IMG/VR virus record: IMGVR_UViG_3300045988_085446
Span: 1-37,550 of that record
Strand: one strand, 5' to 3'
DNA: 37,550 bases
Source: a virus
Shown: positions 12,220 to 12,733 of the stretch, piece after piece
How positions within the stretch are numbered: the first letter of the stretch is position 1
Layout: every line of letters begins with the position of its first letter
Program-made: the position numbers and the translations under genes
The notes under the pieces: model-generated
The model's database searches: none
What the model was told of the DNA's origin: nothing
What the model saw: only the letters and a program-made list of their open reading frames with translations

Positions 12220-12248
12220 AAAAAAAGACCATGTTTTTACCATGATCT
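12220..12248 (-). terminator. Intrinsic terminator downstream of the DUF2829/Tad2-like gene
   Basis: The minus RNA reads AGAUCAUG-GUAAAAA-CAUGGUCU, an 8-bp stem with one G-U pair, followed by UUUUUUUA. Confidence 0.7.
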
Positions 12249-12265
12249 AAATTAACTATTATTTT

Positions 12266-12733
12266 TTACTCAACTATTACCCAGTCTTCAGCAAGGCAAT
12301 CATTTATACTCGGCACCCACATAGAATGTGAACCATCAACACATCTGATCTGCAGATATGGGTTACACTTGAATAAGTCACCCTCGCTGATTCCCCAGGC
12401 TTCTGCGGTCTGCTTGTTACATGGTATGCCATCAGGATATCCCTTCTGGAATACAACAAACATTCCTTTGCCATTCCAACCCTTTCTTGCAACTCTGAAG
12501 CCCTTCTTGAGCATTTCAAGAGCAATCCCAAACGTCATGTTGTCACATGGTCTGTATGCTTCGTTAAACTGCTTCTCCGGCGACCAGCTCTCATATCCAT
12601 CTGAATATCTTACGAGATAGCCTTCATCTGCTGGATTTTCTTCCGTTGGAATCTGCCATCCTCTGTAATTGTTATAGTCGCCTCTTGTCATCGTTTTTGC
12701 CTCAATCTGTTTTGTTCCTACATACTTCTTCAT
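12266..12733 (-). CDS. Two-domain protein with C-terminal DUF2829 (Tad2-like) domain
   Basis: The C-terminal half [31 protein letters not shown]...[31 protein letters not shown] follows the DUF2829 consensus as I remember it. The N-terminal half is [22 protein letters not shown]...[15 protein letters not shown]. Strong RBS AGGAGGA. Confidence 0.75.
   Translation of the reverse strand: [155 protein letters not shown]

Follow-up and report, generated by a model that had tools for sequence, protein, structure and literature searches.

In the virus record IMGVR_UViG_3300045988_085446 (positions 1 to 37,550, a stretch of 37,550 nucleotides [nt] that we refer to as the window), a gene for a protein of 155 amino acids (aa) lies among the genes for head morphogenesis. 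The locus raises the question of whether this protein belongs to the phage head or to the phage's defences against host immunity, and of what each of its two domains does. Our results show that the gene adds to a well-known family, Tad2, a further member that is distinguished by an uncharacterised and widely shuffled partner domain, and that it is an accessory cassette in a hypervariable slot of an otherwise conserved head module. Judging from profile matches and a predicted fold, its product is very probably a cytoplasmic counter-defence sponge.

Sponges are a main route by which phages act against signalling immunity (Thoeris, CBASS and Pycsar), and recent sponge families were discovered by examining the fusion partners of known sponges. 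The interest of the present gene lies mainly in its N-terminal domain, which offers a lead, and in the head-module slot, where new anti-defence genes may be sought.

Tad2 fold and ligand pocket of the C-terminal domain

The preliminary description of this locus, made from the letters alone, had placed the C-terminal half of the protein in DUF2829. This placement holds, as the profile PF11195 (Tad2-like) matches residues 66-154 over its full length (positions 1-73 of 73) with 85.4 bits, the curated cutoff of this model being 25 bits. A phmmer search against PDB sequences returned only Tad2 proteins, namely ModTad2 (9eib/8v3e; E 5.5e-19), HgmTad2/AcrIIA7 (8kbi; E 2e-16), SPO1 Tad2 (8sme; E 7e-12) and SptTad2. 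In an AlphaFold2 (AF2) monomer model of the 155-aa protein (model confidence, pLDDT, 88.9), the C-terminal part has the Tad2 topology, with helix 68-76, strands 80-83, 91-96, 126-131, 137-140 and 151-154, and helices 107-113 and 143-147. The top 24 Foldseek matches of this model in the PDB are all Tad2 structures (E at most 4.5e-4, probability 1.0, target TM-score 0.53-0.75, 34-44% identity). The best solved relative of residues 63-155 is ModTad2, from a Myroides odoratus prophage (Foldseek identity 41-44%), which resembles the present protein in that additional short beta strands occur within the beta2-beta3 insertion of each. ModTad2 is, however, a single domain of 89 aa, whereas the protein of the window has an additional N-terminal domain of 65 aa.

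The family's founding member, SPO1 Tad2 (Gp34.65; 8sme/8smf), is a single-domain protein of a lytic Bacillus myophage and has the same fold. Its contacts with 1''-3' glycocyclic ADP-ribose (gcADPR) are W25, N26, W73, D79, S76, D67, I63, T78, T65 and H71 (10.1101/2023.05.01.538930). We transferred these positions to the 155-aa protein through a sequence alignment to SPO1 Tad2. The four main contacts, W25, N26, W73 and D79, correspond to W86, N87, W139 and D145 and are all identical; S76, D67 and I63 are also retained, as S142, D133 and I129, giving seven of the ten positions. The comparison of fold and pocket thus agrees with the initial proposal, in that the fold is that of Tad2 and the core of the gcADPR pocket is kept. 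The residues of the gcADPR site of HgmTad2, W21, N22, S90 and D93 (10.1101/2023.11.15.567273), are likewise all conserved. HgmTad2 (8kbi-8kbm) also has a cyclic-dinucleotide pocket, made up of a 41-residue insertion together with R31, S47, F70 and N85 (10.1101/2023.11.15.567273); the HgmTad2-type subclass of cyclic-dinucleotide binders was taken to have, after beta2 and ahead of the following core strand, 35-41 inserted residues plus these four. That pocket is not conserved in the 155-aa protein, where about 29 residues (K97-P125) are inserted and the four positions are taken by Q96, a gap, C123 and S137.

HgmTad2 was originally described as AcrIIA7, and one phage homologue carries the annotation 'anti-CRISPR protein', which could be taken to mean that the present gene encodes an anti-CRISPR of the AcrIIA7 type. 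Such a role is extremely unlikely, because the anti-Cas9 activity of HgmTad2 and of other Tad2 homologues proved irreproducible, both in vitro and in vivo (10.1101/2023.11.15.567273).

On the profile, PDB, fold and pocket results, the assignment of the C-terminal 90 residues to the Tad2 family is secure, and the same results make an ADP-ribose-derived ligand the best guess. Homologues of Tad2 are known to bind 3' cyclic ADP-ribose (3'cADPR), histidine-ADP-ribose (His-ADPR), N7-cADPR, cyclic dinucleotides or cUMP/cCMP (10.1101/2025.08.24.671296). The original suggestion of an anti-Thoeris sponge for gcADPR therefore stands with regard to the family and the conserved pocket core, but its restriction to Thoeris and gcADPR was too narrow, given the several ligands known for Tad2.

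The N-terminal domain and its partners

The first 65 residues (here the N-domain) form a separate and confidently folded unit in the AF2 models, with a pLDDT of about 95 in the full model and of 89.5 when folded alone, and thus constitute a distinct second module as had been supposed. No Pfam or NCBIfam model matches the N-domain, and there is no match in the PDB either by sequence profile (best E 0.88) or by Foldseek fold search (best E 0.95); the PHROGs that contain it are all labelled 'unknown function'. A profile search for the N-domain found 3,757 clusters at 50% identity (E at most 1e-3), 1,580 of them with E at most 1e-10, and 149 of 50,697 records of isolated phages contain the domain. 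In the 147 best representatives, its Pfam partners are Tad2-like (38), PF21825 (26), PF13876 (16), WDGH (1) and OmpA (1), the remainder being stand-alone or having unannotated tails. PF21825 is the Sequestin sponge and PF13876 the Acb4 sponge (10.1101/2025.07.12.664507), and in the single polypeptides P0267, P0280, P0258 and P0302 the order is Acb4, N-domain, Sequestin. Searches for fusions that rely on Pfam cannot see the N-domain because it is absent from that database.

A further partner is found in Pectobacterium phage vB_PatP_CB1, the RyR Tad protein (gp68) of which begins with a domain homologous to residues 1-62 of the protein studied here (BLASTP E 4e-7 over residues 1-56; 32.7 bits for a profile of window-type N-domains, positions 1-62 of 68), and in both proteins this domain precedes a signal sponge. 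The C-terminal sponge of RyR Tad differs, being all-helical and similar to Repeat12 of the ryanodine receptor rather than a Tad2 domain, and the N-domain of RyR Tad lacks the YNxYRGW motif (N21/R24/W26), the conservation of which elsewhere in the family is at least 90%. As judged by these sequence matches, the N-domain is an unnamed module that recurs beside four sponge families: Tad2, Sequestin, Acb4 and RyR Tad. Fusions of Tad2 with Acb4, of Tad2 with Sequestin and of Acb4 with Sequestin resemble the present protein in joining small anti-signalling domains, and the N-domain participates in this shuffling. In the known fused sponges, however, both halves are proven sponges, whereas here one half, the N-domain, is a putative one.

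The combination of N-domain and Tad2 is also present in model phage N4, where the N-domain can be tested directly. The N4 protein gp49 (EF056009) and 'DUF2829' proteins of N4-like phages, such as IME11_19, have the same architecture in 160-166 aa; phage homologues of this type are 41-47% identical to the 155-aa protein. The genes of these phages, which have Proteobacteria hosts, occupy an anti-signalling hotspot (which also houses IME11_19) beside an Acb4-family gene and the gene for the virion RNA polymerase, whereas the gene of the window lies in the head module. In N4 itself (locus L172, 1103..1956), gp48, a member of the Acb4 family (PF13876), adjoins gp49 (160 aa) just upstream of the virion RNA polymerase gene. 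A further phage example, Kapi1_043, is situated between lysis and terminase genes. The examples from N4, IME11 and Kapi1, as well as those from phage CP51 and a Vibrio phage given below, were checked with Pfam and N-domain profiles.

Several other identities for the N-domain were considered and rejected. A diverged duplicate of Tad2 received an hhalign probability of 1% (E 0.055) and, by Foldseek to SPO1 Tad2, a TM-score of 0.35-0.39 with E of about 1; both halves of the protein share RGW and YLxxxxDGxxSW-P-like motifs. Partners with a Dec-like fold or with PF21825 are among the exclusion criteria used by the Sorek group (10.1101/2025.08.24.671296), and the N-domain matches neither the Dec-like structure 6E3C, which is the decoration protein of phage L, nor PF21825, which is a different, helical domain. 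For Lockin, Acb5 and Tad3-8 alike, the N-domain profile gave no significant match among PDB sequences. Lockin was further dismissed since its N-termini, as far as they can be read from primers, differ; Acb5 was dismissed since its W38/R10/H61 pattern does not fit a domain without a conserved His; and Tad3-8 were dismissed since they bind proteins. Matches to folds of the Tudor/SH3/chromo type were below threshold (Pfam Tudor_5, E 0.0037-0.094) or had Foldseek E values of 0.95 or more, and give no classification; they are suggestive of a small beta-rich fold.

The N-domain also occurs as a stand-alone open reading frame (ORF) of 65-80 aa. One ORF of 74 aa consisting only of this domain, in a Lachnospiraceae metagenome-assembled genome (locus L087, 4001..4225), stops a few residues past the end of the domain and probably derives by truncation from a two-domain gene, so that stand-alone status needs to be checked case by case. 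The neighbours of this ORF are not phage-like, and one of them is the likely source of an LCM methyltransferase match among the downstream neighbours.

Proposed sponge mechanism and the role of the N-domain

If the protein acts like its solved Tad2 homologues, its Tad2 domains would assemble into a homotetramer, and the pockets between protomers would sequester an ADP-ribose signal derived from TIR, most likely 3'cADPR or His-ADPR. Sequestration would keep a host effector of the Thoeris type inactive. The position of the gene suggests that it is expressed together with the late head genes, and we infer from this timing that the sponge would be in the cell while structural proteins are made. 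A tail fibre has reportedly been found to be a trigger or escape site of Thoeris. A capsid vertex protein has been reported in the same role (PMC13243611).

By homology with RyR Tad, the N-domain would most likely form a beta-strand-swapped dimer that ties sponge protomers together. The crystal structure of the gp68 N-domain is a dimer with swapped beta1 strands (10.64898/2026.06.04.730250). On this analogy, we regard pairing of the N-domains as swapped dimers, stabilising or cross-linking the assembly, as having a little under an even chance of being correct. The N-domain may in addition have its own ligand site, and that it adds a second binding specificity is a more tentative idea.

A number of observations weigh against the interpretation of the protein as a two-domain sponge of this kind. 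The N-domain precedes helix alpha1, which mediates tetramerisation in Tad2, and the gene sits in a late operon. Sponges are usually regarded as early proteins. Three of the ten pocket positions of SPO1 Tad2 are changed, T78 to N144, T65 to C131 and H71 to S137, and because of these differences the ligand cannot be assigned. The YRGW and SWSP motifs of the N-domain are found nowhere in the supplement of the Tad2 study (10.1101/2025.08.24.671296), and the architecture of N-domain plus Tad2 therefore appears to lie outside the set tested in that study. Finally, the N-domain of gp68 on its own (gp68_N, residues 1-86) did not counter type I Thoeris (10.64898/2026.06.04.730250), which argues against a sponge role for the N-domain. 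This last result is tempered by the fact that gp68 is a member without the N21/R24/W26 motif.

The gp68 result bears on the possibility that the N-domain is itself a sponge for a different immune signal, the whole protein being bivalent like the Tad2-Acb4 and Acb4-Sequestin fusions. Sponge domains do fuse with each other, and Sequestin was itself found by this fusion logic (10.1101/2025.07.12.664507). The N-domain follows the same pattern in being fused, among the 147 best representatives, with Tad2, Sequestin or Acb4, in its middle position in triple fusions and in its occurrence as a separate ORF; furthermore, the polar or aromatic positions K8, Y20, N21, R24, W26, E32 and W50 are at least 90% conserved among representatives clustered at 50% identity. 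Other points tell against it, as the report of the gp68 crystal structure names no ligand in the domain and the N-domain is net acidic (9 K/R and 11 D/E by sequence count), whereas the pockets of known sponges are positively charged. We therefore view an N-domain sponge as possible but doubtful, and rank it below the swapped dimer. Similarly speculative is the broader proposal that the N-domain represents a new and very large anti-signalling family, in which the site formed by K8/Y20/N21/R24/W26/E32/W50 would bind a new immune signal or would sense or regulate the attached sponge, making both the 155-aa protein and N4 gp49 bivalent. If the N-domain binds a signal, it would be one more sponge family; if it only dimerises, it would show how phages build multivalent sponges.

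The slot between the MuF and scaffold genes

We gathered 80 relatives from IMG/VR through their scaffold protein (74-98% identity) and scored the 78 contigs that had enough upstream sequence. The Tad2 gene is present in 22 of the 78 and absent from 56, the flanks on either side being conserved, and this presence/absence polymorphism bears out the initial impression of an inserted cassette. The gap from MuF to scaffold is hypervariable, measuring 727-870 nt in contigs with the gene and mostly 267-486 nt in those without it; in three gene-less loci the gap is about 670 nt and contains a DUF6275 ORF. In other contigs the place of the Tad2 gene in this slot (loci L092-L171) is taken by small ORFs of 57-101 aa, which belong to at least eight unrelated families, and the occupants include ORFs of 57 aa (15 loci), 86 aa (10), 81 aa (6) and 93 aa (5), a zinc-ribbon-like ORF of 64 aa (5) and the DUF6275 ORF (3). 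As a Tad2 sponge shares the slot with them, the other ORFs are candidate anti-defence genes.

The ORF directly ahead of the Tad2 gene varies among relatives as well. In the window it is a small ORF of 63 aa, which separates the gene from MuF. The position of the gene between MuF and scaffold, its length of 155 aa and its translation were correctly given at the outset. In most of the relatives that carry the Tad2 gene, an unrelated ORF of 68 aa replaces the 63-aa ORF, the start of which overlaps the MuF stop codon in the window. An index of the public assembly collection lists a protein identical to the 155-aa product in 157 blocks, and the order MuF, 63-aa ORF, Tad2 gene, scaffold is found in all six displayed places of this identical protein. 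The full-length protein matches PHROG 872 (E 3.3e-54), which has no known function.

Homologues in species-representative bacterial genomes are up to 80% identical and lie in different phage contexts, the MuF-like upstream gene being kept in just 1 of 80 homologue genome loci. Their commonest neighbours are terminase, portal, minor capsid, scaffold, holin and endolysin genes, so that a location at the margin of a late module is usual for this family. In Bacillus phage phi4J1 the order is MuF, DUF2829, scaffold. In Clostridium perfringens phage CP51 (L173, 3295..3965), a Tad2-like gene of 68 aa and then a gene for an N-domain-Acb4 protein (gp007) follow a minor capsid gene. Vibrio phage 1.205.O (L091, 2264..3255) has a Sequestin-Tad2 fusion and then an N-domain protein of 141 aa with an unannotated C-terminal half, and these sponge genes precede genes for a coil-containing protein and the major capsid protein. 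Head-module slots of Bacillus, Clostridium and Vibrio phages thus also house sponge genes, while in prophages of the gut Lachnospiraceae type Tad2 sponges occupy a swappable slot of the head module.

It could be argued from these locations that the protein is a component of head morphogenesis or of the virion (for decoration, for assembly or as a packaged protein) and has no part in anti-defence. Scaffold, portal, terminase and minor capsid genes are indeed frequent companions of its homologues, and exclusion criteria in one study suggest that a Dec-like decoration fold is joined to some Tad2 domains (10.1101/2025.08.24.671296). The head module, however, works without the gene in the 56 close relatives that lack it and have unrelated small ORFs instead; homologues of the same architecture reside in non-structural loci, the N4-like hotspot and the lysis-terminase region of Kapi1; and the solved homologues are all soluble sponges. 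As the gene is dispensable among close relatives, we consider a structural role in the head very improbable.

At the downstream edge of the slot lies a hairpin followed by a run of T residues, which had been described as the gene's own terminator and as a mark of its insertion. The hairpin is real, with eight base pairs, and the surrounding 66 nt fold at -12 kcal/mol (z = -2.4 relative to shuffles). A regular expression for hairpin and T-run found it in 22 of 22 relatives with the gene but also in 44 of the 56 without it, and in relatives its distance to the scaffold ATG is always 106-112 nt. The hairpin looks like an intrinsic terminator but is, because of its presence at this fixed distance in gene-less relatives also, a conserved element of the phage backbone and not the gene's own. 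It sits at the downstream border of the variable slot, and insertion cannot be argued from it. Terminator-like sites are not enriched downstream of other Tad2 homologues (12 of 78 compared with 62 of 660, p = 0.11), and with this result and the gene-less relatives we rejected the terminator as a mark of the cassette. In the region as a whole, terminator-like sites do not exceed chance (4 found and 3.3 expected in shuffles). Variant stems retain pairing through changes from G·U to G-C (T·G to C-G), and among the loop variants is TTTTTAC, exactly the reverse complement of GTAAAAA, a relation that suggests an inversion of the loop.

The coordinates of the gene, its domains and the flanks of the slot are collected in Table 1.

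Table 1. Location of the two-domain gene and of neighbouring features in the window
Feature	Position	Strand	Basis or remark
Head scaffolding protein (conserved gene on the downstream side of the slot)	11457..12143	-	PF06810, E 1.5e-20; PHROG 194
Hairpin AGATCATG-GTAAAAA-CATGGTCT with T-run	12220..12248	-	Pattern scan; stem 12248..12226, T residues to 12220
Coding sequence of the two-domain protein, 155 aa	12266..12733	-	ORF list; stop codon 12266..12268
Tad2-like domain, residues 66-155	12269..12538	-	PF11195, E 3.9e-24; pocket W86, N87, I129, D133, W139, S142, D145
Unnamed N-terminal domain, residues 1-65, beta-beta-alpha-beta-beta-alpha	12539..12733	-	AF2 model, profile searches
Ribosome-binding site AGGAGGA	12741..12747	-	8 nt 5' of ATG; read from sequence
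Small Cys-containing ORF, 63 aa, variable slot occupant	12775..12966	-	PHROG 33375, function unknown
MuF-like minor head protein (conserved gene on the upstream side of the slot)	12966..14507	-	PF04233, E 2.2e-17

The strong ribosome-binding site ascribed to the 155-aa gene is present ahead of its start codon. No sigma-70-like promoter was seen in the gap of 41 nt 5' of the gene, the nearest weak match (9 of 12 positions) being at 13069..13040, inside MuF. The scaffold gene is called as 217 or 228 aa in relatives, and its start in the window is likely the ATG at 12110. The major capsid gene also lies downstream of the Tad2 gene.

The phage is a temperate siphophage, with its nearest genomic relatives in Lachnospiraceae and further Clostridia. 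The best species-representative genomes (Roseburia, Lachnospira, Lacrimispora and others) reach only 74-80% identity. The interval between portal and MuF (14497..16412, minus strand) holds ORFs of 452 and 180 aa without a Pfam or NCBIfam match. It is a second variable slot, occupied in relatives with the same Tad2 protein by pairs of 267 and 176 aa, 229 and 156 aa, or 228 and 162 aa. Further along the window (22945..27071, minus strand), a C5-cytosine methylase of 536 aa stands beside a fusion of 839 aa that combines an SNF2-related part with an N6/N4 methylase, and these two adjacent DNA methyltransferases may give the phage additional counter-defence (anti-restriction) functions. A protein of 522 aa with a C-terminal T5orf172/MUG113 (GIY-YIG-like) domain is encoded at 34918..36486 on the plus strand, opposite to most ORFs of the window.

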